Source: Escherichia phage myPSH1131
Sequence record: MG983840.1
Direction: 5' to 3' (one strand)
Length of the DNA stretch: 64,000 nucleotides
Under the pieces are notes generated by a model, which saw only the letters and a program-made list of their open reading frames with translations, was not told the DNA's origin and searched no databases. Positions 1,193 to 19,853 of the stretch are shown here, piece after piece (within the stretch, counting starts at the first letter, position 1; each line of letters opens with the position of its first letter). Both the position numbers and the translations under genes were made by a program.

Positions 1193-2995
1193 ATGGCTAA
1201 GCAAAAATATAGTGAAGAGGTGTTGGACGAGTTACGTGTTGACCTTCAACGTCGTTTTAATTACGCTCAAGGTTACGTGGACATGGCTGTTAAGGGCTAT
1301 GCTCGTGAAGCTTGGGAATATTTCTATGGTAACTTACCTGCACCAGTAACTGCTGGCAGCTCTAGTTGGGTAGATCGTACTGTTTGGGAATCTGTTAACG
1401 GTACATTGCAAGATATTATTAACGTATTCTGTTCTGGTGATGAAGCAGTTACTTTCGTAGCTGACAACCAACAGGATTCTGATGCTGCTGATGTAGCAAC
1501 TAAACTAGTTAACCAAATTCTTCTGCGTGATAATCCGGGATACAATATTATCTCTTCTGCTGCACAAGAATGTCTAGTTACTCGTAACTCTTTTATCAAG
1601 TATTATTGGGATGAACAAACTTCTACTCAAACTGAAGAAGCTGAAGGTGTACCACCGGAAGCATTGGCTGCATATGTTCAGGGATTAGAAGCTGGTGGAC
1701 TCAAGAATCTGGAAATCTTCACTGAAGAAAATGAAGATGGTACAGTGGATGTTAAAGTTACTTACGAACAAACTGTTAAACGTGTGAAAGTTGAATATGT
1801 CCCTTCAGAGCAAATCTTTGTTGACGAACATGCTACCTCTTTTGCAGATGCACAATACTTCTGTCATCGTGTTCGTCGTTCTAAAGAAGATCTGGTTGCT
1901 ATGGGCTTCCCTAAAGACGAGATTGAAGCATTCAACGACTGGACAGACACGATGGATACTACTCAATCTACAGTTGCTTGGTCTCGTACTGACTGGCGTC
2001 AGGATATTGATGCTGATATTGGTACAGATACCGAAGATATTGCTTCTATGGTTTGGGTTTACGAGCACTACATTCGTACTGGTGTTCTAGATAAGAATAA
2101 AGAGTCTAAACTCTATCAGGTTATTCAAGCTGGTGAGCATATCCTTCACACTGAAGAAGTAACTCACATTCCGTTTGTAACCTTCTGTCCGTATCCGATT
2201 CCAGGCTCCTTCTATGGTCAATCGGTCTATGACATTACGAAAGATATTCAAGATTTACGTACCGCGTTAGTTCGTGGTTATATTGATAACGTCAACAATG
2301 CTAACTATGGTCGATACAAAGCTCTTGTTGGTGCATACGACCGTCGCTCTCTGCTTGATAACCGTCCCGGTGGAGTGGTTGAAATGGAACGTCAGGACGC
2401 TATTGACCTGTTCCCATACCATAACCTACCTCAAGGTATTGACGGCCTCCTAGGCATGTCTGAGGAGCTTAAAGAGACACGTACAGGTGTAACCAAACTA
2501 GGCATGGGTATCAACCCTGATGTGTTTAAGAATGATAACGCTTATGCAACTGTAGGCTTGATGATGAATGCTGCACAGAACCGTCTCCGTATGGTGTGTC
2601 GTAACATTGCTCACAACGGTATGGTTGAATTGATGCGTGGTATTTACAACCTTATCAGAGAAAATGGTGAAGTCCCTATCGAGGTACAAACCCCTCGCGG
2701 TATGATTCAGGTAAATCCGAAACAATTACCAGCTCGTCACAATCTCCAAGTTGTTGTAGCTATCTCTCCTAATGAGAAAGCAGAACGTGCACAGAAACTG
2801 ATTAGCTTGAAACAGCTGATTGCAGCAGATGCACAGTTAGCACCTCTCTTTGGTTTGGAGCAAGACCGTTACATGACTGCACAGATCTTTGAGTTGATGG
2901 GTATTAAAGATACACATAAATACCTTCTGCCTCTGGAACAGTATCAGCCTCCAGAACCTAGGTTGAGAACGTACAGGCTTCTTCTCAGAAGATGA
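1193..2995 (+). CDS. portal protein
   Basis: 600 aa ORF directly after the terminase; SD GAGGGAGAG precedes the ATG; ATGA overlap with the next gene. Call is by position and size only. Confidence 0.6.
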   Translation: MAKQKYSEEVLDELRVDLQRRFNYAQGYVDMAVKGYAREAWEYFYGNLPAPVTAGSSSWVDRTVWESVNGTLQDIINVFCSGDEAVTFVADNQQDSDAADVATKLVNQILLRDNPGYNIISSAAQECLVTRNSFIKYYWDEQTSTQTEEAEGVPPEALAAYVQGLEAGGLKNLEIFTEENEDGTVDVKVTYEQTVKRVKVEYVPSEQIFVDEHATSFADAQYFCHRVRRSKEDLVAMGFPKDEIEAFNDWTDTMDTTQSTVAWSRTDWRQDIDADIGTDTEDIASMVWVYEHYIRTGVLDKNKESKLYQVIQAGEHILHTEEVTHIPFVTFCPYPIPGSFYGQSVYDITKDIQDLRTALVRGYIDNVNNANYGRYKALVGAYDRRSLLDNRPGGVVEMERQDAIDLFPYHNLPQGIDGLLGMSEELKETRTGVTKLGMGINPDVFKNDNAYATVGLMMNAAQNRLRMVCRNIAHNGMVELMRGIYNLIRENGEVPIEVQTPRGMIQVNPKQLPARHNLQVVVAISPNEKAERAQKLISLKQLIAADAQLAPLFGLEQDRYMTAQIFELMGIKDTHKYLLPLEQYQPPEPRLRTYRLLLRR

Positions 2996-3396
2996 TTGCT
3001 GATGCATTCGACCAACGTGAACGTACTACATTCGAACAGCAGAAAGCTGCGGATGAATTAAGTCTGCGTCAGGAAGAGTTGCAGTTCAAGCAAGAAAATG
3101 CAGCAGATGCAATGACTCTGGAAAACCGTAAAGAAGATAACAATGCTACTCTGGAACAAGCTAAGCACAAGTTAGCTCTTATGCAACAGCAGGTCCGTCA
3201 GTATGAATCTGTACTGAAAGAATTGCAGATGGTTATGTCTCATCAGGTAGACCAAGAGAAGATTGTTCAGCAAGCTCGTGTTCAGGATAAAACTTTGGAA
3301 CTCCAAAAGAAAGAAGCTAATGTAACTAAGAAAGAGCAACAAGCTTCTCTCAAAGATTCACGGATTCCAGGCAAACGTCTTGGAAGTAAAAAGTAA
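2992..3396 (+). CDS. scaffolding-like coiled-coil protein
   Basis: 134 aa, Q/E/K-rich heptad-like sequence; lies between portal and capsid. Confidence 0.45.
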   Translation: MIADAFDQRERTTFEQQKAADELSLRQEELQFKQENAADAMTLENRKEDNNATLEQAKHKLALMQQQVRQYESVLKELQMVMSHQVDQEKIVQQARVQDKTLELQKKEANVTKKEQQASLKDSRIPGKRLGSKK

Positions 3397-3420
3397 GGAC
3401 GTCGAATGAATGAACATTAG

Positions 3421-4020
3421 GCATCAATTCACACCCATGCAGCTCGTAAGACTGGTGCATTCCAGTTCCTGTGTGCTCACGGTGGTCTGGCTGGTGGCGT
3501 TGTTGACAAGACCAAGAATGGTCCTGCTGACCCGGACACTGGTGCAGTAACTGTTAAAGTTGCACAGAATGCTTCTAACCCGACCACTAACATTGGTTTC
3601 GACGAAGCTGATATCTTTGATATGACTCTGCAACTGTATACCGCTGGTTCTGAAGCAGATATCATCATGATTAACCCGGCTCATGCTAAGATCTTTGCTG
3701 GTCTGCAAGAAAATACTCAGGGTTCACGTAAGCGTATCTTTGAGAACACCAAGCAGTTCATCTACGAAGTTAACAGCATCACTGACCCGCTGGGCCAGAG
3801 CTACAAAATCATCGTTAACCGTTGGATGCCTACCGATGCAGTTTACTTCTTCCGTAGCGCTGACTGGACCCAGATGGTTCTACGTGCTCCGAAACGTACT
3901 GAACTGGCTAAAGACGGTTCTTACGAGAAGTGGATGATTGAAATGGAAGTTGGTCTGCGTCACCGCAACCCGTATGCTTCCGGCGTTCTGTTCACTGCTG
4001 CGGGAAAGGTGGCGGCGTAA
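3421..4020 (+). pseudogene. major capsid protein, C-terminal ~200 aa only (T7 gp10-like C-terminus)
   Basis: Frame 1 is open from 3421 with no start codon. The C-terminus (RNPYASGVLFTAAGKVAA) resembles T7-type capsid ends. Two in-frame stops at 3394-3420 separate it from the scaffold ORF. Confidence 0.5.
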
Positions 4021-4031
4021 CAGTAGACAGT

Positions 4032-4544
4032 GTGACTGTTAGCCCTGCGTCTTTAGCAAGCCTAGAGACAGGGGCTACTCGGCAGTTCACTGCAAGCGCG
4101 GAGAAAAGTGATGGTTCTACCGAAACAACTGGCTTTACTTGGTCAGTGACAGGAGGTGGTTCTATCACTCAGTCGGGTTTGTATACTGCCCCGAGTGCGT
4201 CTCAATCCACTGATGTATCCATTACTGCAACTTTAGAAGGTGTTTCTGGTACAGCAACCATTTCTGAAATTGTTGCTCCTACTCCTACTATTGTGAGTCG
4301 TGGGCCAATTACAGGTAAAGTAGGTGGTACTACCACTAACTTCAACACCATGTTTACTGTAACTAATTCTATTGCTGATGATTACACACTTGTTGTAACT
4401 CCCGCAGAAGCTGGTACAATAAGCGCTAATAATTCGTTAAAATTAGATGCTGCTGCAAGTGGCGAAGTTACTGTTCAAGCAAGTTTGACAGCTGACCCGT
4501 CCATCAATGCAACATGCACTTTTACTGGTGTAACACCTGCTTAA
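4032..4544 (+). CDS. Ig-like (Big_2-type) domain ORF in the -1 frame of the capsid gene; probable frameshift extension
   Basis: T/S/G-rich Ig-like sequence (TWSVTGGGSITQSGLYTAP). The -1 frame is open from 3942 across the capsid stop, and a GGGAAAG heptamer sits at 4002-4008. Confidence 0.5.
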   Translation: MTVSPASLASLETGATRQFTASAEKSDGSTETTGFTWSVTGGGSITQSGLYTAPSASQSTDVSITATLEGVSGTATISEIVAPTPTIVSRGPITGKVGGTTTNFNTMFTVTNSIADDYTLVVTPAEAGTISANNSLKLDAAASGEVTVQASLTADPSINATCTFTGVTPA

Positions 4545-4550
4545 AAACTA

Positions 4551-4577
4551 GACCCTGCCTTCGGGCGGGGTTTTTTC
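4551..4577 (+). terminator. rho-independent terminator
   Basis: Stem CCCTGCC / GGCGGGG with a TTCG loop, followed by TTTTTT. Confidence 0.7.
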
Positions 4578-4604
4578 GTTTTAAGACCTATACAAGCTAG
4601 TGTG

Positions 4605-4613
4605 TAATGTATA
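4605..4613 (+). promoter_or_regulatory. TAATGTATA promoter motif (phiEco32-type)
   Basis: Exact TAATGTATA, 33 nt upstream of the ATG at 4647. Confidence 0.5.
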
Positions 4614-4646
4614 TTCTTTGTCTACATACAACAAGGAGGACAACCT

Positions 4647-5399
4647 ATGGCGATGCCAGATGTGGCCTATCCGATTAACACGTATGGCTGGCTTAAGAAA
4701 GCTGTTGCCTTGTGGGCCGATCGGGACGATGACGAATTTGTTAATCAAATTCCAAACTTTATTAACTTTGCAGAGAAAGAGGTTTATCGTAACTTACGTA
4801 TTCCTCCTCTGGAAAAAGAAGTGTATTTAGATATTAAAGATGGAGTGGCTTATATTCCTCCTGATTACTTAGAAGCTCAATGGATGATGAGAGCCAAAGA
4901 TGGTACAATCTTCCAAGTAACATCTCCTGAGGAGATAAGCTATCGGAGACAGCACGGGGCTATTAACTCTTCACATTGGAATAACCAACCTGTTAATTTT
5001 GCACGGTTTGGAGCACGTTTCTTATTCTATCCTAGAATAAATGCAGATGTTCCGCATTACCCTGATGATGGTAGTCCGATTGTTCCAGCGGAGAGTTCGG
5101 TAATCTTGAGTTATTATGCAGATCCTCCAGAATTTCACGAAGATGGTGATACAAGTGCGATTCTTACCATTGCACCAGAGCTTCTTTTATATTTTACTCT
5201 GAGGCATGCATGTTTATTTGTTCAAGATGATAATGGGGTTCAAAAGTGGTCTGCTTTAGGTAAGGCTATTCTTGACGAGCTAGTAGAACAGAATAAGAAA
5301 CAAGAGTACTCAGGTTCACCTATTGCAATTCCGAATAACATGACTCGACTTCAGAGCAGCCTGCCTGATATTTATGGTATTCGTACTTCTCGTCTATAA
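4647..5399 (+). CDS. structural protein, possibly adaptor or tail tubular protein
   Basis: 250 aa ORF with SD AAGGAGGA, first gene after the capsid terminator and promoter. Function is a positional guess. Confidence 0.35.
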   Translation: MAMPDVAYPINTYGWLKKAVALWADRDDDEFVNQIPNFINFAEKEVYRNLRIPPLEKEVYLDIKDGVAYIPPDYLEAQWMMRAKDGTIFQVTSPEEISYRRQHGAINSSHWNNQPVNFARFGARFLFYPRINADVPHYPDDGSPIVPAESSVILSYYADPPEFHEDGDTSAILTIAPELLLYFTLRHACLFVQDDNGVQKWSALGKAILDELVEQNKKQEYSGSPIAIPNNMTRLQSSLPDIYGIRTSRL

Positions 5400-5408
5400 G
5401 GAGATAAT

Positions 5409-8400
5409 ATGATCGTTTATAACAACCAAGCACCTAAGAATGTTAACAATGTAGGACAATTTGGAGCTACTGAGGGAACTATTGGTGCTTATAAATCAGC
5501 AGCTGAATATGCAGCAGACTCTAAATATTGGGCATTGTTGTCCCAAACTAAATACTCCTCAGTAGAGGAGATTTTGGCTGAAGTAGAACGTCTGTATGCT
5601 CAAGGTCATCTACTGGAAGAAGACATTAAACAACTCAAGAGTGACTTTGAGTCACAAGAACAAGTGCTCTTAGGTTTGATTCAATCCACAGGAACTGCAA
5701 TTGACAACACCAATGCAGCAACTGAGCTTTCAAAAGAGGCAACTCAAAACGTTCTAGCACAACTTGACATTATCTCTAACATGACAGTTCAAACAACGCT
5801 TCTTCCTCCGGGAAGCCTAGCTACGGGGTCTTATGATAATGCAACAGGTGTCTTTGCTTTTGGTATTCCAGAAGGTAAACCGGGGCGTGATGGTACTGAC
5901 GGAACAATCGGTGATATTGGAAGCGTTCCTGTTGGTACCCCTGTTGTTGATGACTATGGTTTCTATGTAGATAAAGATGATGGTGGTTTATACCGAGCTG
6001 ACATGTCAGATATTGCCAACTTGATTCCATCTGTTCGATCTGTTTCAATCAATGGCGGCGCTGAACAAACAGGTTCAGTGGTTTTTGATTCTGTCTCCAC
6101 ATTCAATGGACGTAAGGGTGCTGTAGTTCCTGCTACTGGAGACTACACAGCTGCTCAAGTGGGAGCTTTTAGTGTAACTAATAACCTATCCGAAATAACC
6201 GACACAAGTGCAGCTATTACAAATATTGGACTCGCTGAGCATGGGATTGGTAGCCCTACCTTAACCAAAGTGAAGGCTATGGACTGGCAAACATTTAATT
6301 TTGTCAATGGAGGTAACTATTCAGTATTAATGTCGAATATTACAAATGCCCCTGCTGAGATAAATTATCCTGCCAATTATGGGTTATATCTTGAAGTCAT
6401 TGGCGTAGTTACAGGAGGAGGTGAGGTACGAGTGGTGCCAGGGACAAACAATAATAACTACTACTCAGTTTTCTCTGTAAGCTGGACTGGAGGAGTTGGT
6501 TCCCGAGTATTTACAGTACGAGAAGAGCTGTCTTCCGCTCGCCCTGTGACTATCTCTCAGGGTGGCACAGGGGCAACTACTGCAAGTGCTGCACGTACTA
6601 AACTTGGTTTAGGTTTGGTTTCCACTGAATCAATTGTACCTATTACCAAAGGTGGTACAGGAGCTACTTCATCAGAGAATGCTCGACTAGCTCTAGTTGC
6701 AGCTAAGAGTGGTGATAACTCTGATATCACCTCGATGACCAACAAGGTTACTTTCACACAATCTCCAGTAATTCCTGATGCTGTAGATGATAATGACGCG
6801 GTTGCTTTGAGACAGTTGCATACAAGTGAAGCAGATTTGCTGGCAAGGCTGAAAAGTAGTAATGCAGGTGAAGGTGCATCCCTTATTACCTTTGAAAATG
6901 GTAATTCTGTTGAGAGTCTTTCCAGTAAAGATGGGGCTAAAAACATTGGCAGTGGTGAGAGAAGTTTGCTTGTCCGTAACAACGACATTAAGCATTCAGG
7001 AGATTTCCCTACCTTACAAGCTGCGGTAAATGCATCGTTACCAAAAAACGACTTAATTGTTTCCCCCGGTGAATACAGTGAAGCGATTACTATTGGTAGT
7101 ACACAGTTAAAGGGTGTTGGTGGAGCCACGGTACTGAAAGCTCCGTCAAACTTTACAGACACTATTCAGGTTAAGGCATCTACGCCTCATTGGCAATTCC
7201 GCCATAGTGGTGGTTTTGCTATAGATGGTTCTGGGACAACCGGGGCTGTAGGTATTAGTTTTGACCCGACCGACCAATATGCTGGTCGTCACAACTTTAG
7301 TGACGTATACATCCATAACATTAACAAGGCCATTCAGAAACCTTCCGGGAATATAGGTAATACATGGAAAGGCATTGGCGTGCAAGGTTGTGACTGGGGT
7401 TACTGGGCACAGTCTGCTTCTGAGATGCACTTAGGCTCTGACACCCTTCAGAACATGCACTTTGATGGTATTAGCACTTACTGTGTTTACTTGAACGCTA
7501 CAACAGGAGAAGCGCCTGGTACATTCGGAGGTGGTGTAGGCGGCTGGTGGATTAAAGATAGTATTATGGAAGCCTCTGGCGGTGGTGGTATTTACCTCAA
7601 GAACAAGGATGGTGACTGCCCTACTGCCCCATGTGGTGTATCCAATGTATGGATGGAAGCTATCGCTACTACTCCAGCTATTAATGTAGATGGTGTATCT
7701 CAGAAGCCTCGTGTCCTTAAACTTATTGATACCAGTATCTTCTTTGCAGAGTACACATACCTTAATAACGTAGAGCTTCAGAACTCCAACCTTGTTACTT
7801 ATGGCTGCCGAGTAGATAATTCAGATGGCCACATGGATATCTCTGTAGATGCCAACAGCAGTTTTGTGGCTGATCAATTGTACCTGAATGGTAGCTCCGG
7901 CAAAGATGTAATGGTACGTTCTGTAGCGGCTCAGACAGGCAAGATTGGGCAAAGCTGGTCACCTAATATGAGTATGCGTGGATACCTGCCGGAAGGATAC
8001 ATCTATCGTGTACCTGGTAATAAGCTGGTAGCTAAACCCTTCGATGGAGGTACTGCTGAATTTAGTGGTACGGCAAGCAGCACTGGGAGTTTGCAGCCAC
8101 AAGGCCAGTTATCTCAGAGCTGCATGTACTTCGAAATCCCTGGTGCTGCTGAGTATGAGCTTACTGGTGCTGCATTTCAGATAACTTCCGGTAACTGGTA
8201 TGTATGGGGCATTAGCACTGAACTGGTACAGGGAACCCCTACAAACTTCCGCATCGGTGGAGATATCAATGTAGGTGAAGTATTTACTAAGGGGGGCCAG
8301 TGGGTGAGTACCTTTGGTGTAGCTCAGGCTAGTGCTTCCGGTTCAGTGAACCTGCGCCTAAGTACAGCCGGTACAGGCGGAGTAGTCCTACGCCTCGCTG

Positions 8401-8474
8401 ATTACTTCGTAGCGGAGTTCACTACTCAGGCAGAGGCTATGCGCTTCGCTAATAGTAGACGTGCCCTGCGTTAA
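5409..8474 (+). CDS. tail fiber / tailspike with beta-helix-like region
   Basis: 1021 aa. Collagen-like GKPGRDGTDGTIGDIG near the N-terminus; Gly/Asn-rich repeats typical of right-handed beta-helix tailspikes. Confidence 0.5.
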   Translation: MIVYNNQAPKNVNNVGQFGATEGTIGAYKSAAEYAADSKYWALLSQTKYSSVEEILAEVERLYAQGHLLEEDIKQLKSDFESQEQVLLGLIQSTGTAIDNTNAATELSKEATQNVLAQLDIISNMTVQTTLLPPGSLATGSYDNATGVFAFGIPEGKPGRDGTDGTIGDIGSVPVGTPVVDDYGFYVDKDDGGLYRADMSDIANLIPSVRSVSINGGAEQTGSVVFDSVSTFNGRKGAVVPATGDYTAAQVGAFSVTNNLSEITDTSAAITNIGLAEHGIGSPTLTKVKAMDWQTFNFVNGGNYSVLMSNITNAPAEINYPANYGLYLEVIGVVTGGGEVRVVPGTNNNNYYSVFSVSWTGGVGSRVFTVREELSSARPVTISQGGTGATTASAARTKLGLGLVSTESIVPITKGGTGATSSENARLALVAAKSGDNSDITSMTNKVTFTQSPVIPDAVDDNDAVALRQLHTSEADLLARLKSSNAGEGASLITFENGNSVESLSSKDGAKNIGSGERSLLVRNNDIKHSGDFPTLQAAVNASLPKNDLIVSPGEYSEAITIGSTQLKGVGGATVLKAPSNFTDTIQVKASTPHWQFRHSGGFAIDGSGTTGAVGISFDPTDQYAGRHNFSDVYIHNINKAIQKPSGNIGNTWKGIGVQGCDWGYWAQSASEMHLGSDTLQNMHFDGISTYCVYLNATTGEAPGTFGGGVGGWWIKDSIMEASGGGGIYLKNKDGDCPTAPCGVSNVWMEAIATTPAINVDGVSQKPRVLKLIDTSIFFAEYTYLNNVELQNSNLVTYGCRVDNSDGHMDISVDANSSFVADQLYLNGSSGKDVMVRSVAAQTGKIGQSWSPNMSMRGYLPEGYIYRVPGNKLVAKPFDGGTAEFSGTASSTGSLQPQGQLSQSCMYFEIPGAAEYELTGAAFQITSGNWYVWGISTELVQGTPTNFRIGGDINVGEVFTKGGQWVSTFGVAQASASGSVNLRLSTAGTGGVVLRLADYFVAEFTTQAEAMRFANSRRALR

Positions 8475-8498
8475 GAGTAATGACATTACTATAAGCAA

Positions 8499-8522
8499 AA
8501 CCCCGCTTAGGCGGGGTTAGCT
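8499..8522 (+). terminator. terminator-like hairpin
   Basis: Stem CCCCGC / GCGGGG with TTAG loop; the downstream T-tract is weak. Confidence 0.35.
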
Positions 8523-8700
8523 TCCATAGGGTAGTTGTTTTCCCTGATGTAGTGGAATTTATCGGAGACAATGAGCTGGCTGCTTTGTTGCATTCTGATA
8601 AATAGTTCATAACTCCCCTTCGAGGTCTTTAGTAGTAAGTACCTTTAGTAAGTAATGAAACTAATATATCCCAAGAGGTTAATACATAGGAGACAGATAA

Positions 8701-8919
8701 ATGAAAATGATGAAACAAGCTGCATATGGTTTAATATGCTTAGGCGCAGGTGTTGTGGTATCCACCGCAGTTCCTGTAGGCGCAGTTCATCCATTAGTTA
8801 CAGCACCTTCTCCAGTAGAGAAGCTTAGCTCTCAATGTAAACAGAGAACAATTCAAAATAACCTAGTTGTTATTTGTCCTGATGCTGAATCTAACGCTCT
8901 GAGAAAGATACTACCTTAA
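8701..8919 (+). CDS. small protein with N-terminal signal/TM segment (possible lysis accessory or holin-like)
   Basis: 72 aa; hydrophobic N-terminus LICLGAGVVVSTAVPVGAV; immediately upstream of the endolysin. Confidence 0.3.
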   Translation: MKMMKQAAYGLICLGAGVVVSTAVPVGAVHPLVTAPSPVEKLSSQCKQRTIQNNLVVICPDAESNALRKILP

Positions 8920-8948
8920 TTTAAAGGGACCACAAAAGGAGGTTAGAA

Positions 8949-9440
8949 ATGGATAACGCCGCATTGCCACCTGTACAATTAAACTTAAGCCCAGCTGGAA
9001 TGGAATTCATTATGAAGCATGAAGGTATGAGAACCAAGGCTTATAAAGATTCCGCAGGCATCTGGACGATATGTGTAGGGGCTACGCGCGATATGAATGG
9101 TTATCCGGTTAGACAAGGATTAACGTATTCTATAGAGGATTGTCTAGCTCTGCTAGATAGAGACACACAAGACTCTGTTCGTGCTACTCAGAAGAACATA
9201 AAAGTTCCTTTACTAGTTCATGAGTTTGATGCACTCACTTCTTTCAATTTTAATGTTGGAAGTGGTGCTTTGAGCACATCTAAGTTAAGGAAGGTTATCA
9301 ATGGAGATGTTAAAGGGGATATTTATTCCGAATTTCTTCGTTGGGATAAGATAACGGTCAAGGGAGTGAAGCAGAGAAGTCAGGGTCTTCATAACAGAAG
9401 GGTTGCAGAAGCTGATCTTTATACCGAAGGTAAATATTAA
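8949..9440 (+). CDS. endolysin, lysozyme (GH24-like)
   Basis: HEGMRTKAYKDSAGIWTICVGAT matches the lambda R / T4 e lysozyme catalytic region; SD AAGGAGG. Confidence 0.8.
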   Translation: MDNAALPPVQLNLSPAGMEFIMKHEGMRTKAYKDSAGIWTICVGATRDMNGYPVRQGLTYSIEDCLALLDRDTQDSVRATQKNIKVPLLVHEFDALTSFNFNVGSGALSTSKLRKVINGDVKGDIYSEFLRWDKITVKGVKQRSQGLHNRRVAEADLYTEGKY

Positions 9441-9452
9441 TGGAGGTGCCTC

Positions 9453-10256
9453 TTGGCTATTGAAACTAATGCGGTAGTAGTTACCGACTTAAACCCACTC
9501 TATCCTCGTGATAGAGATTATATCTATGAAGGTGCAGCCCAGCTGCGCCTAGTTAAGCAAGTATTACAGAACACATTCCCCAACTTAACTGAGCCTATGA
9601 CTGTAAACTCTGACACACTAGCTGCTATCTCTGACAAGATCTCTTTTGCTGGTGACTATATGGATGTTGGTGGTTTGATGATTAAGAATGGTACAGCAGG
9701 TACTGGTAATAACGACTTTACCACCAAAGCCCAAATGGAATCTTTTATGCTCAACTGGATGCAGAATAAGATTTACAGGGTTGGGTCTTATTACATCACT
9801 GAGGAAGATATTAACCCGGGAGATTCTACATCTTTAGGGTTTGGTATCTGGACACAAGTTACTGGTGTTATCATGGGTGCTGGGGTTGTGAACCCTGATG
9901 GGACAGTCCCTAATGCTCAGCGTGTGGAGTTTACTGCTGGTGCTACAGGTGGTCGTGTTTACAACACAGTTAAGACAGAGAACCTGCCATTGACTACAAT
10001 CTCTGGTTCAAGTTTTTCTCTTTCTAACTATACACACTCACACACTACATCATTTGGACGTGGAGATGCAAGTGGACATAACAGCTCACCTAACTGGTAT
10101 AATCCGGGGGTTAGTTATTCTGTTGCATCAAGTTCTGATACTCACACCCACACCATTACAGGTGATGCAACATTTGGCTATGATGATGTATCTCGTCAAC
10201 CTATAAATACGTTACCACCCTTCCGTGCAGCATATATCTGGAGACGTATCAGTTAA
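9453..10256 (+). CDS. tail fiber-like protein
   Basis: 267 aa, Gly/Thr/Ser-rich, within the tail gene block. Confidence 0.35.
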   Translation: MAIETNAVVVTDLNPLYPRDRDYIYEGAAQLRLVKQVLQNTFPNLTEPMTVNSDTLAAISDKISFAGDYMDVGGLMIKNGTAGTGNNDFTTKAQMESFMLNWMQNKIYRVGSYYITEEDINPGDSTSLGFGIWTQVTGVIMGAGVVNPDGTVPNAQRVEFTAGATGGRVYNTVKTENLPLTTISGSSFSLSNYTHSHTTSFGRGDASGHNSSPNWYNPGVSYSVASSSDTHTHTITGDATFGYDDVSRQPINTLPPFRAAYIWRRIS

Positions 10257-10265
10257 GGAGGAAGT

Positions 10266-13223
10266 ATGGCTCTTTACCCAATAAAATCTTTGGGTGCGGT
10301 TGGTGTTATTGCCGACCAATCTCCTACAGATCTGGCTCCTAATGCATTTACTAATGCAATTAATGCTCGGTTTGTAGAACAGCGTGTGTTTAAGACGGGG
10401 GGCTCTGCCCCTCTTTCTTACGTTGAAAGTGATAAAGAAATAAGACCATTATCATTCACTTCAATGCCTTTTGACTACTTCAGTGCTAACAATAGTTTCT
10501 TACTGGTAGGTACAGATAAGAGTATTTTTAGATTAAATAATGAATCTATGGTTGATGTTAGTCGAAGAGTGGCTACAGTCACCAAAAAAGCAGTATCTTA
10601 TGTCAAGATAAACCCCGTACTAACAGAGATCGTCCCTAAAGAAACATCTGTTATTATGAATCTTAATGAAAGCAAGGTTCTCGAGGTATCTCTTCTTCCA
10701 GAAGGTGTTGTTACTCCATCCCTTGTGTGGGAGGTTAGTAATCCCTCCTATGGTTCAATATTAGTTGACCCTGATGATAGTAAGAAAGCTACATTGAGTG
10801 TCTTATCTAATGAGGGTAGCTTTACTGTCACTGTCTCTAATGAAGATGAATCTGTAACTACCAGTATCTCCGTAAAGGTTGTTGATTCTGATTCTGGTAT
10901 CTTCCTTAACCGGGACTCTGTTCAACTTCGTAAAGGTGGAACAACCACACTTACAGCAACAACCAGCAAGACCCCACTAACGTGGACTTCTTCTAACCCG
11001 TCCATTATATCTGTGGCGCCTAATGGTGACACTACTACAGCAATATTAACCGCTCAAGGAGTAGGTAATGCACTGATAACAGTAAGCAATGGGTCTAAAA
11101 CCTCGGAATGCTCTGTTAGTGTTATCAATCAGATTGACAGTATATCTTTAAGTCAAACAGATTTACAAATTAACCGTGGGACGTCATATGTCTTATACTC
11201 TAGTTTAATTCCATCAAATGCTGCAAATCAGAGAATAACTTGGACTTCCTCTAACCCAAATATCGCCACTGTTTCGGGAACAGGTCTTCAAGGAACTGTC
11301 TCTGGGTTAACTGCTGGGTTTACAGTTATAACAGCAACTACGGAAGAAGGTGAAAGGACCGCCACCTGTAACGTCAGGGTTGAGTTATCAAGTAGGGCCC
11401 TTTTTTCTGCTGCATCAGCTCCTTCTGAAGAACCTAGTTCTACGGATTCAGATATTGACACCTCATCTATGTCAGAGGGCAATGCTTTTTATGACTATTC
11501 TATGGTTGATGGTGTTGAAGCCTATTCTATAAATGAAGTCATGTCTAGGTCAACTCAGCTTGAATCCTTAACTCTTGACATTGTGGATACTGAAATTGAT
11601 GTTGGAGATGAGTTAGTAATAACTGCAACGGCATTCCCTGAAGGGGAGTACCTTTATAATTGGGTGGTAGATCAGCCGGGGTATATATCCTCTACTTCCA
11701 CTACCGACTCTTCCTTTACCTTAACTGCTATTAAGACTGGCAAAGTGAAGATAACCTGCACTGCTAGTCAAGTAGCTCGTAGAGACTATGAAGCATTTGA
11801 GGAGTATCCTTGGTATAATACGATTATCTCTAACTGCGCAGTATTCACTACTCACTACGAAACCCCTCAAGTAAAAGAGTTTGCCTCTGAGTATTTCACA
11901 GATCTTCCGGGGTGGGGTGAGCAGACAATAGTAGATGCTAATGGGAACCCTTCTGTTGTAAAATATAACTGGAAGTGCGAAAGGATTCGTGCATTTAATA
12001 ATCGTCTATTTGCTCTTAATATGCGAGAGTCTAATGCATCAGGAGTTACTACTCACTACCCTCTTCGACTTCGCTGGTCTAACTATGCTAATGAGAATAA
12101 GGCACCTACTTTATGGGATGATTTTGCTTATGATAGATATGTGACTTCAGATTTAGCAGCAAATGTTGTAGGTCAAACTGAGGCTCTAGAAAATGGATAT
12201 GCCGGATACATAGATTTAGCTGACTCAAACGGTAGCTTAGTCGAAATTCTTCCTCTTAAGGATTATCTATTTATCTATACGGAGTTTGAGACTTACATTG
12301 GATCCCCAACTAACAACACATATCAACCTCTAATGTTCAAGAAGCTCTTCAACGACTCTGGAATCTTAGCACCTGAGTGTGTAGTTGAAGTTGAGAGCGG
12401 ACATTTCGTGGTCACTCAGAATGATGTTATTCTACACAATGGTGCAACCAAGAAGTCTATTGCATCTAACAGGGTCAAGAATATGCTTATCAACGAAGTG
12501 TGTTTAGTAAACCCTTTGGCTACTAAAGTTCATCTTCACCAAGACAAGAAGGAAGTGTGGATTCTTTATGTAGGACCCGGAGAACCTGCTGGGAGCTTTG
12601 CTTGTACGAAAGCCGCTGTATGGAACTATGAGTTTGATACGTGGTCTTTCCGTACAATCCCATTCTCTCATTGTATTGGTTTAGTCGATCCTCCTACTTT
12701 AGAGAAAGGTCCTACTTGGGTTGATTTCCAAGAGTACACTTGGGATGACCCTTCAATCAGTGAACTTGTGTGGAGAAAGGATTCTACTAACTTCCGTCAG
12801 AGAGTTACTGTAGTAGGTTCTTGGATGAAAGGTTTTTACCAAGTGGACATAGGTCCTTATGACTACTCTTATGATAGGCTGAATGATATTGTTGTCAAAA
12901 AGCCCCTAGAGATGAGACTGGAAAGAACTGGTATAGATTTTGACAACGTAACTAATGAATGGAATCAAAAGCACATAAACCGATTCCGTCCACAAGTAAC
13001 CGGGTCAGGTACGTACATATTCCAAGCTGGTGGTAGTCAGTATTCGGATCAAGAGGATAGGCATATTCATAGTGAAAAGTCTTATACAATTGGTGTGGAC
13101 AGACATGTAGGTGTCCGACTGAACCATCCGTATCTATTCTATAATGTTATAGATAATGATGTTAACAGTAATGCAGCAATCAATGGTCTAACTATTGAGT
13201 TTGCTGTTGGCGGGCGAAGATAA
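10266..13223 (+). CDS. large tail protein with repeated Ig-like (Big_2) domains
   Basis: 985 aa with several Big_2-type segments, e.g. TWTSSNPSIISVAPNGDTTTAILTAQGVGNALITV and ITWTSSNPNIATVSGTG. Confidence 0.5.
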   Translation: MALYPIKSLGAVGVIADQSPTDLAPNAFTNAINARFVEQRVFKTGGSAPLSYVESDKEIRPLSFTSMPFDYFSANNSFLLVGTDKSIFRLNNESMVDVSRRVATVTKKAVSYVKINPVLTEIVPKETSVIMNLNESKVLEVSLLPEGVVTPSLVWEVSNPSYGSILVDPDDSKKATLSVLSNEGSFTVTVSNEDESVTTSISVKVVDSDSGIFLNRDSVQLRKGGTTTLTATTSKTPLTWTSSNPSIISVAPNGDTTTAILTAQGVGNALITVSNGSKTSECSVSVINQIDSISLSQTDLQINRGTSYVLYSSLIPSNAANQRITWTSSNPNIATVSGTGLQGTVSGLTAGFTVITATTEEGERTATCNVRVELSSRALFSAASAPSEEPSSTDSDIDTSSMSEGNAFYDYSMVDGVEAYSINEVMSRSTQLESLTLDIVDTEIDVGDELVITATAFPEGEYLYNWVVDQPGYISSTSTTDSSFTLTAIKTGKVKITCTASQVARRDYEAFEEYPWYNTIISNCAVFTTHYETPQVKEFASEYFTDLPGWGEQTIVDANGNPSVVKYNWKCERIRAFNNRLFALNMRESNASGVTTHYPLRLRWSNYANENKAPTLWDDFAYDRYVTSDLAANVVGQTEALENGYAGYIDLADSNGSLVEILPLKDYLFIYTEFETYIGSPTNNTYQPLMFKKLFNDSGILAPECVVEVESGHFVVTQNDVILHNGATKKSIASNRVKNMLINEVCLVNPLATKVHLHQDKKEVWILYVGPGEPAGSFACTKAAVWNYEFDTWSFRTIPFSHCIGLVDPPTLEKGPTWVDFQEYTWDDPSISELVWRKDSTNFRQRVTVVGSWMKGFYQVDIGPYDYSYDRLNDIVVKKPLEMRLERTGIDFDNVTNEWNQKHINRFRPQVTGSGTYIFQAGGSQYSDQEDRHIHSEKSYTIGVDRHVGVRLNHPYLFYNVIDNDVNSNAAINGLTIEFAVGGRR

Positions 13224-13227
13224 TACT

Positions 13228-13256
13228 AAGGGAGCTTCGTGCTCCCTTTTCTTGTT
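13228..13256 (+). terminator. rho-independent terminator
   Basis: Stem GGGAGC / GCTCCC with TTCGT loop, then TTTT. Confidence 0.6.
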
Positions 13257-13273
13257 TATTATAAGGAGGGTCT

Positions 13274-14242
13274 ATGGGTGCTGGTGGCTTTCGTAAGAAT
13301 ACCGGAAGAAACAACACAACACAACCTTATAGTGTGGGCTTTCTAAACACCTCTGAGAGTGTAGAAACCAATAACGTTGCAATATATGATGAACTCCAGA
13401 ACATTAGCACTGCAACCAATCAAATGTTCCAAGCTATAGATGAAATCCACGAGGAGATTGATGTTCGTATTAAAGCTCTTCATGCTATGAATTTGCAATT
13501 CGATGAATTAGAGAACCGTGTTACAACAGAGATTGAGACTGCCATTGCAGATATCATAACACAAATGGGTAATCTATCCACTGATGATATTTGGGATAAC
13601 TCTGTTCAGCCTCCTGTTAAGTTAGATTCAACTATGTCTGGTATTAAGACTTCTATAGAAGGCAATACAGCATCTATTCAAACTGTCGAAGGCATTGTCA
13701 ATGATCAAGGACAAGAGATTGCCCTTATTCAGTCTGATTTAACTAACGGGACAGGTAGTGCTTCTCAATATATGAAACTCACTGAATATGAAGCTACTTG
13801 GGGAGTAAATTCCACAGTAAATGGAAAGACAGCAGGAGTAAAACTGACAAATAATGGTTCTGTAAGCCAATTCCAAGTCACAGCTGATAAGTTTGTGGTA
13901 TCTGATGGCACATCAGGAAGTACTCCCTTCAAGGTTGAGAATGGAAGGGCTGTTATGGAGTTTGCTGATATTACTAATGTCAATATTACAACAGCTCAAA
14001 TAGCAACAGCTAGGATTGAATGGGCACAGATTGATAATGTTAGTATAACAAATGCACAAATCACAAGTCTCTCCGCTGATAAGATAACGGCTGGGTCTAT
14101 GTCAGGGACTAATTGGCGTCTTACAGTTGGCGGTGACTTTGTTTTAGGTGGAACAGGTGGTGCACAATTATGGATGAATGGAAACAGAATAGATTTCTAC
14201 GACGGAAGTGGTGCTCTAAGAATTAGAATAGGGAGTTGGTAA
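13274..14242 (+). CDS. tail fiber / structural protein
   Basis: 322 aa ORF with SD AAGGAGGG; repeat-rich C-terminal half. Confidence 0.35.
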   Translation: MGAGGFRKNTGRNNTTQPYSVGFLNTSESVETNNVAIYDELQNISTATNQMFQAIDEIHEEIDVRIKALHAMNLQFDELENRVTTEIETAIADIITQMGNLSTDDIWDNSVQPPVKLDSTMSGIKTSIEGNTASIQTVEGIVNDQGQEIALIQSDLTNGTGSASQYMKLTEYEATWGVNSTVNGKTAGVKLTNNGSVSQFQVTADKFVVSDGTSGSTPFKVENGRAVMEFADITNVNITTAQIATARIEWAQIDNVSITNAQITSLSADKITAGSMSGTNWRLTVGGDFVLGGTGGAQLWMNGNRIDFYDGSGALRIRIGSW

Positions 14243-14243
14243 T

Positions 14244-15275
14244 ATGGCATATGGAATATGGACACAACCAGTAGGGCCGGGGCCAGCAACCCCCGCTCCC
14301 TTGTTTATTGATAGCGGAAGTACTTTCCCTCAGTTCAAGAATAGTATAAGAGGGAGCTTTAACTTTAATGGAGCTGGGAGATCTTTCCCTATTAGTGGAT
14401 GGGATGGCAGTGGTCAGATAGTTATTGTTCCTACCGGTTCTTTATGCTGGCAATGGGAAGTCCCTCCTAACCTAGTTCCTGATGTTTATTGTGTGAATAA
14501 TATCTATGTAGAAAACAACTCCTCTTTTAGAGTTACTCTGAATCAGAACCCCGGTAGTAATCCACTATTCGATTGTGGGTTCAACGTATATCAAATATGG
14601 CCTAGAGCGGATAGGAATTATGGAATTACCTTTTCTAATACAGCAGACTACTTCTCAATATCTGACAGTGGGGTCGTCGGTCAATGTATTTGGGCTTGGC
14701 AGGGGACCATAAACAATGCCCTTCAGATACCAAATATCGGTGGGTTCAATATGACCAATGCTGTTGTGTTTGCTAATTGGTCTGATGGAGGGGTAGGACT
14801 ATCTTATACCTCTGATGACAGGGTTATTCGCGTCTATCAGAACAGACCCTATGTCAACGGAAACACTAATGAAGGAGGGTCTGTCTTTGCGAGGGTTGCC
14901 GTATTCTGTAACGGAGCTGGTGTTCCTGAGCATAATGGAGGTTTGAATATTTACTCTCCGGGTACCACACAATGTGTCTTCTCTACTAACAGAACACCTT
15001 TCACTGTGGATACTTTTATAGGATCAGGAGGTGGTAACACGGGAATGTCATACCCCATGATACCTCTTACCTCTGGGATAGGTGCAATAAAAGGCCGAGG
15101 CAGTGGATGGAGATATCAGCAAATGAGATCTCACACAATGAGTGGTTCTACGATAGGAACTGGCTATGGAAGGTATTTGTTTCAGTGGGATCAAAATTAC
15201 GACCTAGGAGCTGATACTGTAGTTAATTTATCAGTCCCTGTAATAAATGCAGCTAAGGTTTTTGCTGGACTATAA
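14244..15275 (+). CDS. structural protein
   Basis: 343 aa ORF, Gly/Asn-rich, tightly packed in the structural block. Confidence 0.3.
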   Translation: MAYGIWTQPVGPGPATPAPLFIDSGSTFPQFKNSIRGSFNFNGAGRSFPISGWDGSGQIVIVPTGSLCWQWEVPPNLVPDVYCVNNIYVENNSSFRVTLNQNPGSNPLFDCGFNVYQIWPRADRNYGITFSNTADYFSISDSGVVGQCIWAWQGTINNALQIPNIGGFNMTNAVVFANWSDGGVGLSYTSDDRVIRVYQNRPYVNGNTNEGGSVFARVAVFCNGAGVPEHNGGLNIYSPGTTQCVFSTNRTPFTVDTFIGSGGGNTGMSYPMIPLTSGIGAIKGRGSGWRYQQMRSHTMSGSTIGTGYGRYLFQWDQNYDLGADTVVNLSVPVINAAKVFAGL

Positions 15276-15287
15276 CAAGGAGATATT

Positions 15288-16070
15288 ATGGCAATTAAAA
15301 TGGGTATTGAAGAACTAGACCCAATGGTTCAACAGGCTTCAAAGAAGTATGGGATTCCTGCTGCTTTGATTCATGCTGTAATCCAAAGAGAGTCTAGTGG
15401 TCGTCCTACAGTAGCTTCTGGAACTGGTCCTGTAGGTTTAATGCAAATCAGTAAAGGGTTGGCTAAAGACTACGGATATAAATTGGAAGATAGATTGGAC
15501 CCAGCAAAGAATATTGATATGGGTGCTCGGTATATCAGAGACAACCTAAAAGCTTTTAACGGTGACGTCAAGAAAGCAATGGTTGGTTATTCAGAAGGTA
15601 TCGGCGGAGCTAAGCAAATGTTCGCTGGTAAAAGAGGGTTTACTCCACAGGCTCTTGATTCAATGAACAATAAACACTTTCTTCCTTTCTATGGTGATGC
15701 AGCTTCTCAGATTGCTAACCCTATTGGAGCTTTGCAAGCTGTTCAACCAGTTAACCAGTTTAGTCCGGATACTCTTGATAGAGAGAAGGCTGCTCAAGCT
15801 CCGACTCAGGCAGAAATTGCTGCTTCTAAGACTGGTGCTTTAGGCGGCAATCCAGTAGAGTTTTACTCTGATGAAGCACAGGAAGGAGAAGATCAGAAGC
15901 CTCAACAGAACTTTGGTAATGCAGTATTAGGAGTAGCTGCTATGCTTGCTGGTAAACCTCCTACTTCTCAAACAGTTCAGAGGGCAAGTGCACCACATGC
16001 AGCAGGTTCTCAGTACAGTCCACAAACACAAGCAGTGCTCAGACGTTTGGCTAGCATTGGTGTGAAGTAA
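15288..16070 (+). CDS. virion-associated lytic transglycosylase (SLT domain)
   Basis: SLT signature ESSGRPTVASGTGPVGLMQI. Confidence 0.6.
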   Translation: MAIKMGIEELDPMVQQASKKYGIPAALIHAVIQRESSGRPTVASGTGPVGLMQISKGLAKDYGYKLEDRLDPAKNIDMGARYIRDNLKAFNGDVKKAMVGYSEGIGGAKQMFAGKRGFTPQALDSMNNKHFLPFYGDAASQIANPIGALQAVQPVNQFSPDTLDREKAAQAPTQAEIAASKTGALGGNPVEFYSDEAQEGEDQKPQQNFGNAVLGVAAMLAGKPPTSQTVQRASAPHAAGSQYSPQTQAVLRRLASIGVK

Positions 16071-16089
16071 TAATCGTTAAGGAGGACTT

Positions 16090-17142
16090 ATGTCTTTATT
16101 TGGAAAATCAGCTTCTAGCAAAACCACAGTGGCTCCTTCCTCTCAGGTTGATGCCCTGCTGAAGCAGATTGTTGCTAATGCTCAGAATATGCAGAACAAC
16201 GATCAGGGTTTTATTTCCCAACAGCTGGCTGGGTTCAATGGCAACCAACAAGGTGCTCTGAATAACTTAGCAGCTTCCACAACTCAAAAACAATTGGCTA
16301 ATATGTACACACCTCGTACACAGCAAGGATTGGACCAACTAAATGCTCTTGCCCAACAGTATCAGAATATTGTTAATAGTGGTGGAGTGACGGCTGAAGG
16401 GGTTAATAACTTTAGTAAAGGTTTGAATAACTCAGCTCTTGCACAAGCTACTAGCAAAGCAGCTTCTAATGTCTCTCTTGGTAATGGCTCTGACTCTGGC
16501 TCTCTCCGTAGGGCTGCGGCTCAAGGGGCTGCTTTGAATGGTGCTAACACTAACCTGTCTCGTACTATCAGTGGCAAGAATATGGGGATCAGTGCTCTTC
16601 AACAAGACCAAAACTTCCAGAGAGGCTTACTTGGTGCTCAGTCAGGGTTAGCTGGACAGAATCTCAATCTTGGTGCTCAAGGTGTTCAGGCAACTCAACA
16701 GGCTATTCAGAATCAGCTCATGGCTGGTAATTTACAACAGCAGCAAGCTCAGGCTCAAGCTGATATCAATTGGCAGAACGCTATTGGCTCTCAGCAGTAT
16801 GGATGGAATCAGCTTAACAACCAGCTTAATGTACTAAACAGTGTAAGTCCAATGGCTGGATACACAATTAAGAATGCTGCTCCGGGAGTTAATGTTGGAC
16901 AGCAGCTCCTAGGTGCTGGTATCACTGGATTAGGTATTGCAGGTCGTATGGGTGCTTTCTCTCCTAATCAACAGACTCAGAATGCTTGGAGTTCCTATAA
17001 CAACTCAGGTGGGCAATCTGGAATGGCTGGTCCTATGATTGGGGGTTCTAATCTTTCTCAACAGAGAGGTCAGTCTAACTGGTTATCCACAGCAGGTAGT
17101 AATATCTTAGGTGGTGTCTTAGGGGCATTTGGAGCAAACTAA
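16090..17142 (+). CDS. internal virion protein A (Q/N/G-rich)
   Basis: 350 aa, begins MSLFG; SD AAGGAGGA. A paralogous second copy is at 23310..24263. Confidence 0.4.
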   Translation: MSLFGKSASSKTTVAPSSQVDALLKQIVANAQNMQNNDQGFISQQLAGFNGNQQGALNNLAASTTQKQLANMYTPRTQQGLDQLNALAQQYQNIVNSGGVTAEGVNNFSKGLNNSALAQATSKAASNVSLGNGSDSGSLRRAAAQGAALNGANTNLSRTISGKNMGISALQQDQNFQRGLLGAQSGLAGQNLNLGAQGVQATQQAIQNQLMAGNLQQQQAQAQADINWQNAIGSQQYGWNQLNNQLNVLNSVSPMAGYTIKNAAPGVNVGQQLLGAGITGLGIAGRMGAFSPNQQTQNAWSSYNNSGGQSGMAGPMIGGSNLSQQRGQSNWLSTAGSNILGGVLGAFGAN

Positions 17143-17154
17143 AGGAGAATATCT

Positions 17155-18123: not shown

Positions 18124-18136
18124 TTAGGAGATAAAT

Positions 18137-19786: not shown

Positions 19787-19806
19787 GACCTAAGTCCTGC
19801 CTTCTA

Positions 19807-19815
19807 TAATGTATA
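19807..19815 (+). promoter_or_regulatory. TAATGTATA promoter motif
   Basis: Exact motif, 39 nt upstream of the ATG at 19854. Confidence 0.5.
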
Positions 19816-19853
19816 TAGGGGGTAGGACATTTTTATTTATAAAAGGAGACGTT

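Follow-up and report, generated by a model that had tools for sequence, protein, structure and literature searches.

The 3′ end of the major capsid gene in this phage sequence very probably directs a programmed −1 ribosomal frameshift by which the capsid protein gains C-terminal Ig-like domains. The window, by which we mean the whole 64,000-nucleotide stretch of Escherichia phage myPSH1131 that was analysed (MG983840.1), is Kuravirus DNA (phiEco32 group). Its capsid/extension region is 99.8–99.9% identical to Escherichia phages myPSH2311 and ES17 and 95–98% identical to many further Kuravirus (phiEco32-like) genomes, and the protein encoded by the extension matches that of ES17 at 180/180 residues and that of phiEco32 at 161/180. 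The analysis establishes the phase of the slip site, the open −1 frame behind it, the Ig fold of its product and the conservation of both the site and the −1 peptide, and it shows that no independent start is usable; the presence of both isoforms in virions is taken from the literature on the relatives SU10 and Privateer and, according to a passage in the Privateer paper, phiEco32 (PMC7881722). A capsid frameshift of this kind is already known, having been described for the phiEco32-like group since 2008–2014, and its mechanism is textbook material.

In the proposed mechanism, most ribosomes would read GGA-AAG-GTG-GCG-GCG-TAA and produce a 352-residue capsid protein. A minority would slip back one base on G_GGA_AAG, with the P-site tRNA-Gly re-pairing from GGA to GGG and the A-site tRNA-Lys re-pairing from AAG to AAA, and translation would then proceed in the −1 frame, adding a Gly-rich linker followed by two Ig-like domains. 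For an intact genome (that of ES17, for example) this predicts a minor capsid isoform of 527 residues and about 56 kDa whose Ig-like domains are exposed on the surface of the head. Hairpins at 4014–4044 and 4049–4069 may stimulate the slip, and the Ig domains may mediate weak adhesion to carbohydrate or cell surfaces.

Capsid gene, slip site and Ig-like extension

The 0 frame of the region is occupied by the 3′ part of a major capsid protein gene (199 codons plus TAA, positions 3421–4020, + strand) which lacks its own start codon: a TAG at 3418 interrupts the frame just upstream, and no ATG occurs in frame before 3622. Its translation (3421–4017) matches the Pfam family SU10_MCP (PF17236) with an E-value of 4e-34 and 118.8 bits (gathering score 24.1), although only over positions 137–289 of the 292-position profile, and corresponds to residues 157–352 of the 352-residue SU10 major head protein (PDB: 7z45; E = 1e-130). 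The fragment is therefore homologous to the SU10/phiEco32-type major capsid protein. The first-pass annotation had simply called it the capsid protein, and both matches uphold that identity; the gene, however, is incomplete, with only its 3′ part in the window.

Comparison with ES17 shows the extent of the truncation. A junction is located at 3406–3431 (+ strand), where 1801 nt of ES17 are missing at about 3420–3431, corresponding to most of gp9, the entire scaffold gene and capsid codons 1–156. The portal gene is also affected, lacking 40 nt at 2959/2960 relative to ES17, which shifts its reading frame. A search for another phage record that spans the junction or shares the 1801-nt gap found none. 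From 3431 to 23200 the window is collinear with ES17 at 99.92% identity, and the cassette at 4002–4544 lies within this clean block, so the sequence there is reliable. Beyond 23.2 kb the window becomes a patchwork of blocks that are 87–100% identical to ES17, with several ES17 segments present two or three times. From this patchwork and these repeats, the window seems to have been put together from wrongly joined contigs of a mixed Kuravirus population and not to represent a single viable genome, and the 5′ truncation of the capsid gene is most likely an assembly defect. Because the capsid gene is truncated upstream, the sequence as written could not make a functional fusion, and we infer the full capsid–Ig fusion for the intact parent only. 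The intact products computed for ES17 are a capsid protein of 352 residues (38.6 kDa) and a fusion of 527 residues (55.8 kDa), sizes which agree with the mass spectrometry table published for SU10 (PMC4281155).

Direct reading of the capsid frame gives a GCT codon followed by GCG at 4000, GGA at 4003, AAG at 4006, GTG at 4009, GCG at 4012, GCG at 4015 and the TAA stop at 4018–4020. The codons GCG GGA AAG place the heptamer GGGAAAG (4002–4008, + strand) in the X_XXY_YYZ phase of the capsid frame, as G_GGA_AAG. Nine nucleotides separate the last base of the heptamer from the stop codon. Earlier annotation had placed the heptamer here, with the stop beginning 10 nt after its last base, and had described a −1 frame open from 3942 to 4544; direct reading bears out the former and translation the latter. 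Counted from the slip, the −1 extension (4002–4544, + strand) comprises 180 codons plus a TAA stop at 4542–4544, or 170 amino acids when counted from the GTG at 4032, and begins with a GK-GGG linker that leads into two tandem Ig-like domains. The translated product after the slip reads GK-GGG-VTVDSVTVSPASLASLETGATRQFTA...

On its own the GGGAAAG motif is no commoner than chance predicts (6.8 ± 2.9 copies expected in the window, 6 present). The configuration is much more restricted. We scanned both strands of the window for every stop-to-stop ORF of 100 codons or more, and an in-phase XXXYYYZ motif in the last 90 nt combined with a long −1 extension was found in the capsid ORF alone; one further in-phase case had a −1 extension of only 18 codons. 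Stop-to-stop stretches that reach 180 codons are themselves infrequent (39 of 7155 in the window). No terminator was found between the capsid stop and the extension, and a strong intrinsic terminator is instead found 3′ of the extension ORF (4550–4583, + strand, made up of 4550–4573 and a T-tract), at a place equivalent to that of annotated terminators in SU10, Paul and 4E8. An Rfam scan of 3800–4700 returned nothing relevant, its sub-threshold matches all falling on this terminator, and inspection of the sequence by eye revealed no Shine-Dalgarno-like element upstream of the heptamer.

Sequence searches of the extension against the PDB gave marginal matches only (E = 0.06–0.18), so that confirmation of the fold needed structure prediction and Foldseek. 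An AlphaFold2 model built on 21 homologues (pLDDT 91, pTM 0.75) contains two all-beta domains. The first predicted domain (4020–4265, + strand; extension residues ~7–88) is Big_2-like, with modelled strands from residues 8–14 to residues 81–87, and the second (4281–4535, + strand; residues ~94–178) has modelled strands from residues 96–99 to residues 169–176. When the model was compared with the PDB using Foldseek, the top match was the Big_2 tandem of Leptospira LigA (E = 5e-10), with further matches to NCAM Ig1-2, invasin and S-layer Ig domains. At the level of the predicted structure, this confirms that the extension consists of two tandem Ig-like domains. The −1 product also matches PHROG 13745, 'Ig domain containing protein', at 4e-75, and shows a weak PHROG match to 'Hoc-like head decoration' (E = 9e-4). 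Pfam Big_2 (PF02368) aligns to extension residues 8–85 with 17.4 bits (E = 0.004), below its gathering score of 22.8; the homologous domain scores 23.4 bits in Paul and 22.3 bits in EP335. Of the Big_2-type Ig-like sequence proposed in the first-pass annotation, the Ig fold is thus retained, but there are two domains and not one, and the 'Big_2' label, which is borderline by sequence, holds by fold and family resemblance and not by the curated Pfam cut-off.

Conservation of the cassette and comparison with known systems

The capsid regions of 20 annotated relatives, 18 viral contigs and 10 true metagenomic Kuravirus contigs were compared. GGGAAAG is present, in phase and unchanged, in 19 distinct relatives. 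Within Kuravirus and its close kin these are myPSH2311, SU10, phiEco32, ES17, Paul, YF01, 4E8 and NJ01; the others are EP335 (Nieuwekanaalvirus), IME267 and ECBP2 (Suseptimavirus), StefiGeyer, ManiMatter, four more viral or metagenomic contigs and, at greater distance, Proteus phage Privateer and Cronobacter phage CsaP_009 (family Grimontviridae, ~52% capsid identity). An invariant in-phase heptamer is thus seen in Kuravirus, Nieuwekanaalvirus, Suseptimavirus, two unclassified Bas phages and Privateervirus. Among the carriers the 0-frame stop follows 0–15 nt after the heptamer, the distance in Privateer being 0 nt.

The sequence behind the site is also conserved, and it is conserved as protein. 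From the heptamer onward the −1 peptide follows the pattern GK-G(S)GG-VTVD(S/T)VTVSP, and many of the codon differences within it are synonymous (11 synonymous against 4 non-synonymous in StefiGeyer). Alignment with the capsid genes of related phages had been put forward as a check on the frameshift, and its outcome, an invariant heptamer with the −1 peptide kept from the slip site onward, favours it. Further downstream the extensions vary in length (171–547 codons) and in domain content. All of the relatives' extensions are nevertheless Ig-like (Big_2, I-set or Ig_3) and begin 1–9 residues past the slip site, including those in phages where the extension is unrelated in sequence. The deposited SU10 sequence contains a 1-nt insertion, which leaves it with a −1 frame of only 13 codons.

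Salmonella phage 7-11, Cronobacter A24 and Aeromonas BUCT695 lack the slip site, and where their short capsid gene ends the −1 frame is not open. Instead, they contain a second, longer capsid gene, which in phage 7-11 encodes SU10_MCP and Big_2 in one ORF beside the short capsid gene. These phages therefore resemble the present system in having a short and a long capsid protein, with C-terminal Big_2 domains on the long form of 7-11, but differ from it in that the long form is the product of a duplicated, directly fused gene with no slip. Since 7-11 encodes the capsid–Big_2 fusion as a single ORF, the capsid–Ig fusion appears to be the conserved end product, which on the evidence of these genomes would be reached either by frameshifting or by gene duplication.

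Use of the site is recorded for several relatives. Khan Mirzaei et al. described slippage on GGGAAAG in SU10, giving a '9+10' alternative head protein, and their mass spectrometry lists CDS9 at 38.5 kDa and CDS9+10 at 55.4 kDa with 22 peptides (PMC4281155). The same signal was reported for Privateer, with two bands and mass spectrometry (Corban and Ramsey, 2021; PMC7881722), and according to that paper the two products had also been observed in phiEco32 and in SU10. The YF01 paper treats GGGAAAG slippage as a trait of the group, with isoforms of about 500–550 or about 890 residues (PMC9965538), and in the RefSeq record of Paul, which cites PMID 18294652, the CDS is joined and annotated 'Frameshift at GGGAAAG'. 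Our cassette is no different from these phiEco32-like systems (phiEco32 gp11/gp12, SU10 CDS9+10, Paul, YF01 and Privateer), having the same heptamer, phase, Gly-rich linker and Ig-like extension and the same placement of the heptamer 9–12 nt ahead of the capsid stop (0 nt in Privateer); what distinguishes the window is a capsid gene that lacks its first 156 codons.

The resemblance to T7 gp10A/10B that was noted at first pass is one of mechanism. In T7 and T3, as would be the case here, a −1 slip near the end of the major capsid gene yields a minor virion isoform with a C-terminal extension. The T7 slip sequence lies in a G GUU UUC region, and the 10B tail is short (~53 residues) and non-Ig. 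The heptamer found here is of the lambda G-T type, lambda gpG/gpGT using the identical G_GGA_AAG for a low-percentage −1 slip; this frameshift was reportedly characterised by Levin et al. in 1993 and by Xu, Hendrix and Duda in 2004. The lambda case involves another gene pair with another function, and its product, unlike a capsid isoform, is a tail assembly chaperone absent from virions. We therefore regard the T7 10A/10B likeness as a functional analogy, which holds for the mechanism but not for slip-site homology, and not as membership of that system. Ig-like domains on phage virions were reportedly surveyed by Fraser et al. in 2006, and the extension would be comparable to them as a set of accessory domains that are exposed on the surface of a structural protein and in some cases acquired through frameshifting. 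It differs from T4 Hoc (the BAM model), which is a separate capsid-binding protein, in that the domains would be covalently fused to a subset of capsid subunits. The T7 analogy has also been drawn for YF01 (PMC9965538) and for Privateer (PMC7881722).

Other routes to the Ig-like protein

It is unlikely that the Ig ORF is a separate gene, translated from the GTG at 4032 or from another internal start to give a free 17-kDa head-decoration protein. Such a protein is what many records list: a stand-alone 'Ig domain containing protein' is annotated in phiEco32 (gp12), in ES17 (ES17_12) and in many RefSeq entries. The annotated starts are inconsistent, however, being placed 30 nt past the heptamer in phiEco32, 51 nt in StefiGeyer, 105 nt in EP335 and 145 nt in SU10. 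In the window, the GTG at 4032 has no Shine-Dalgarno sequence, the 18 nt preceding it giving an anti-SD duplex of −1.7 kcal/mol compared with −8.5 to −12.3 kcal/mol for the portal, adaptor, tail-fibre and endolysin-like starts. Neither is the codon itself maintained, being GTA in Paul, YF01, EP335, ECBP2, StefiGeyer and a viral contig, and ATA in NJ01. Ahead of this codon the −1 peptide is already conserved, and in the model the first beta-strand of Ig domain 1 (residues 8–14, nt 4023–4043) begins before the GTG. In Privateer and PJNS034 the Ig domain starts 1–2 residues past the slip site, and in Privateer a stretch of 186 nt offers no start candidate.

SU10 provides evidence on both sides of this question. 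The authors of its cryo-EM structure treat gp10 as a possible separate minor capsid protein (PMC9509320), and the Ig ORF of the deposited SU10 sequence cannot be reached by a −1 slip; against this stands the mass spectrometric support for a fused 55-kDa form in the same phage (PMC4281155). With a GTG that lacks a Shine-Dalgarno sequence and is not conserved, the −1 fusion is much better supported than independent translation. The first-pass annotation had named independent translation from GTG 4032 as the outcome that would speak against frameshifting, and that outcome is disfavoured by the missing Shine-Dalgarno sequence, by the codon and peptide conservation and by the position of the strand. 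A tryptic peptide expected of the −1 fusion, GGGVTVDSVTVSPASLASLETGATR, starts upstream of the GTG and would therefore not arise from independent initiation.

We consider it quite improbable that the cassette is a relic which is unused in this lineage, with only the short capsid protein being of consequence. This idea draws on SU10, which is viable with the extension apparently lost and without extra capsid density, and on the capsid gene of the window, which is itself broken. The cryo-EM structure of SU10 shows no density for the Ig protein (PMC9509320), and the YF01 paper points to an anomalous premature stop in the SU10 sequence and, in its own reading, to the lack of a long SU10 band on SDS-PAGE (PMC9965538). 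Taken together with the closed −1 frame, these observations suggest that the extension is dispensable or disordered in at least one relative. The 180-codon −1 frame of the window, by contrast, is intact and encodes exactly the protein found in ES17. At the protein level the extension is conserved, although relatives have swapped it for other Ig modules; these points argue against a relic.

Finally, very little credence can be given to RNA polymerase stuttering (transcriptional slippage), or to heterogeneity within the DNA population, as the source of the long form: either would yield the same protein and has nothing specific in its favour, even if the window itself apparently stems from a mixed or mis-assembled population, since RNA polymerase slippage is driven by runs of about 8 or more A or T, the slip site offers homopolymer runs of G3 and A3 only, and the strictly conserved feature is a phased X_XXY_YYZ heptamer, as tandem tRNA re-pairing requires.

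Downstream RNA and consequences of the probable frameshift

Two candidate hairpins follow the slip site on the + strand. Hairpin 1 (4014–4044) is formed by GGC, a bulged G and UAACAGU pairing across a loop with ACUGUUA and GCC; 5 nt lie between the heptamer and the hairpin, and 9 nt between the heptamer and the invariant 7-bp core, UAACAGU/ACUGUUA. Hairpin 2 (4049–4069), obtained by RNA folding, pairs GUCUUUAG with CUAGAGAC around a CAAGC loop. The 62-nt fold beats 200 of 200 shuffles (z = −2.9), but longer folds do not stand out (z = −1.5 for 72 nt and −1.1 for 109 nt). Across an alignment of 11 distinct sequences, which represent about 4–5 lineages and include the one from which the structure was derived, 92.9% of cells can pair, compared with 23–49% when the partners are slid. 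The seven core pairs of hairpin 1 never vary among these 11 sequences and are therefore uninformative for covariation. In hairpin 2, two pairs are changed on both sides across the relatives (UA/GC/AU and GC/UG), and these compensatory changes also alter the encoded amino acids. To enlarge the set of sequence types for covariation, a pattern scan of viral contigs gave the same 5 genomes, and among the 116 stretches retrieved in a metagenome scan just 10 came from true Kuravirus contigs, which added no further sequence type. As it stands, the evidence for conserved downstream stimulatory hairpins is suggestive but thin, and we retain them as candidates.

The frameshift has a direct consequence for annotation. 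Most records of the group, including those of ES17, myPSH2311 and phiEco32, list a stand-alone Ig or 'hypothetical protein' with inconsistent starts, and should carry a joined capsid CDS instead. The slip site would also set how many capsid subunits bear surface Ig-like domains, a number that is relevant to phage adhesion and pharmacokinetics given that ES17-type phages are in development for gut decolonisation. In the ES17 study, the tail fibre was held responsible for binding to mucin and heparan sulfate, and the Ig extension of the capsid was not discussed. Two minor leads arise here, namely the possible conserved downstream stimulator and a contribution of the capsid Ig domains to the adherence of ES17 to mucin. 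Tentatively, and with some doubt, we suggest that the hairpins at 4014–4044 and 4049–4069 tune the slip and that the Ig-bearing capsid isoform adds to this adherence.

The downstream hairpin pair is not described for this phage group, and it differs from the stem drawn in the SU10 paper, in which CTGCTGC pairs with GCGGCGG and the GGGAAAG heptamer occupies the loop (PMC4281155). That stem is composed of the Ala-Ala-Gly-Lys codons together with those of the Gly linker, and its 3′ arm looks to be absent in ManiMatter. It would also already be melted by a ribosome decoding the heptamer.

Slip sites and a possible slip variant at the capsid 3' end in relatives

In five more distant relatives, the capsid gene ends in CUG AAG GUA AAG (GCG or CCC) UAA. 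The ending lies at approximately 3007-3020 in three IMG/VR contigs (L025-L027) and at approximately 3507-3519 in the Aeromonas phage LAh_9 (L011) and the capsid region L032. All five carry an imperfect heptamer, G_GUA_AAG, at the place homologous to GGGAAAG, with an open -1 frame of 110-190 codons that codes for Big_2 or I-set domains. G_GUA_AAG may be a slip variant acting at the A site only (A_AAG). In L025, a very stable hairpin is found directly 3' of this heptamer (72-nt fold, z = -5.0). Two further relatives have other slip heptamers in phase at the capsid 3' end. The Escherichia phage PJNS034 carries C_CCA_AAA at 3417-3423 of L014, followed by a 134-codon extension of Ig_3/I-set type and with a strong hairpin downstream (z = -3.1). 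An IMG/VR contig (L031) carries A_AAA_AAG at 2998-3004 with a 44-codon extension, and this heptamer is dnaX-like. Tandem capsid genes, one short and one long with a C-terminal extension, are a gene-duplication alternative to frameshifting; they are found in Salmonella phage 7-11 (L008), Cronobacter phage A24 (L010) and Aeromonas phage BUCT695 (L013), whose capsid regions contain no slip site.

Outside the capsid site, GGGAAAG occurs in five copies in the window (14323-14389 on the minus strand, 25970, 50433 and 58485). None of these was recovered by a scan for in-phase heptamers near ORF ends, which covered the final 90 nt of all ORFs of 100 codons or more.

Capsid genes in related deposits

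The deposited sequence of the Kuravirus SU10 (KM044272) has a 1-nt insertion at 3600-3613 of L002 (ACTGTCTACTG versus AGTGTGACTG), which shuts the -1 frame after 13 codons. Despite this closed frame, a 55.4 kDa fusion of the capsid and Ig-like products (9+10) was reported by mass spectrometry (PMC4281155), a mismatch that reflects either an error in the deposit or a heterogeneous stock. Like that of the window, the capsid gene of myPSH2311 (MG976803) is disrupted (2601-3192 of L001), with the 0 frame open only from 2979; in the annotation, the 'major head protein' has 132 aa and the Ig ORF is a fragment of 64 aa. The disruption points to errors of sequencing or assembly in the myPSH2311 deposit. 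Separately, a record named 'Mycolicibacterium phage J1' (24,953 bp; MZ417522.1), with M. smegmatis as its stated host, matches this E. coli Kuravirus at 99.9% identity across the capsid and Ig region. The record probably bears the wrong host or name, or is contaminated.

Missing and duplicated segments of the window

Comparison with the near-identical Kuravirus ES17 shows that the window lacks 1801 nt (ES17 6298-8098) at a gap located at 3406-3431. Most of gp9 falls within the missing stretch, as do the entire scaffold gene and codons 1-156 of the capsid gene. The flanking sequences are joined out of frame (TTCA|CACCC), and 4 nt (ATGA, 3406-3413) are duplicated relative to ES17. No public phage record was found to span this junction. 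Upstream, the portal gene is short of 40 nt at 2959-2960 (ES17 5790-5829), and the 747-codon portal is therefore broken into two ORFs, one of 600 codons whose tail is aberrant (1193-2995) and one of 134 codons (2992-3396). The same 134-aa piece is annotated as 'portal protein' in myPSH2311.

Collinearity with ES17 is absent from 23200 to 64000. This region, which contains no Ns, is a patchwork in which blocks 87-100% identical to ES17 are separated by unmatched stretches of approximately 70-950 nt, and several ES17 segments are present in two to three copies; ES17 52138-53749, for example, is found at 53854-55167, 55278-56493 and 56590-58201. It looks as though contigs from a mixed Kuravirus population had been concatenated, or an assembly mis-scaffolded.
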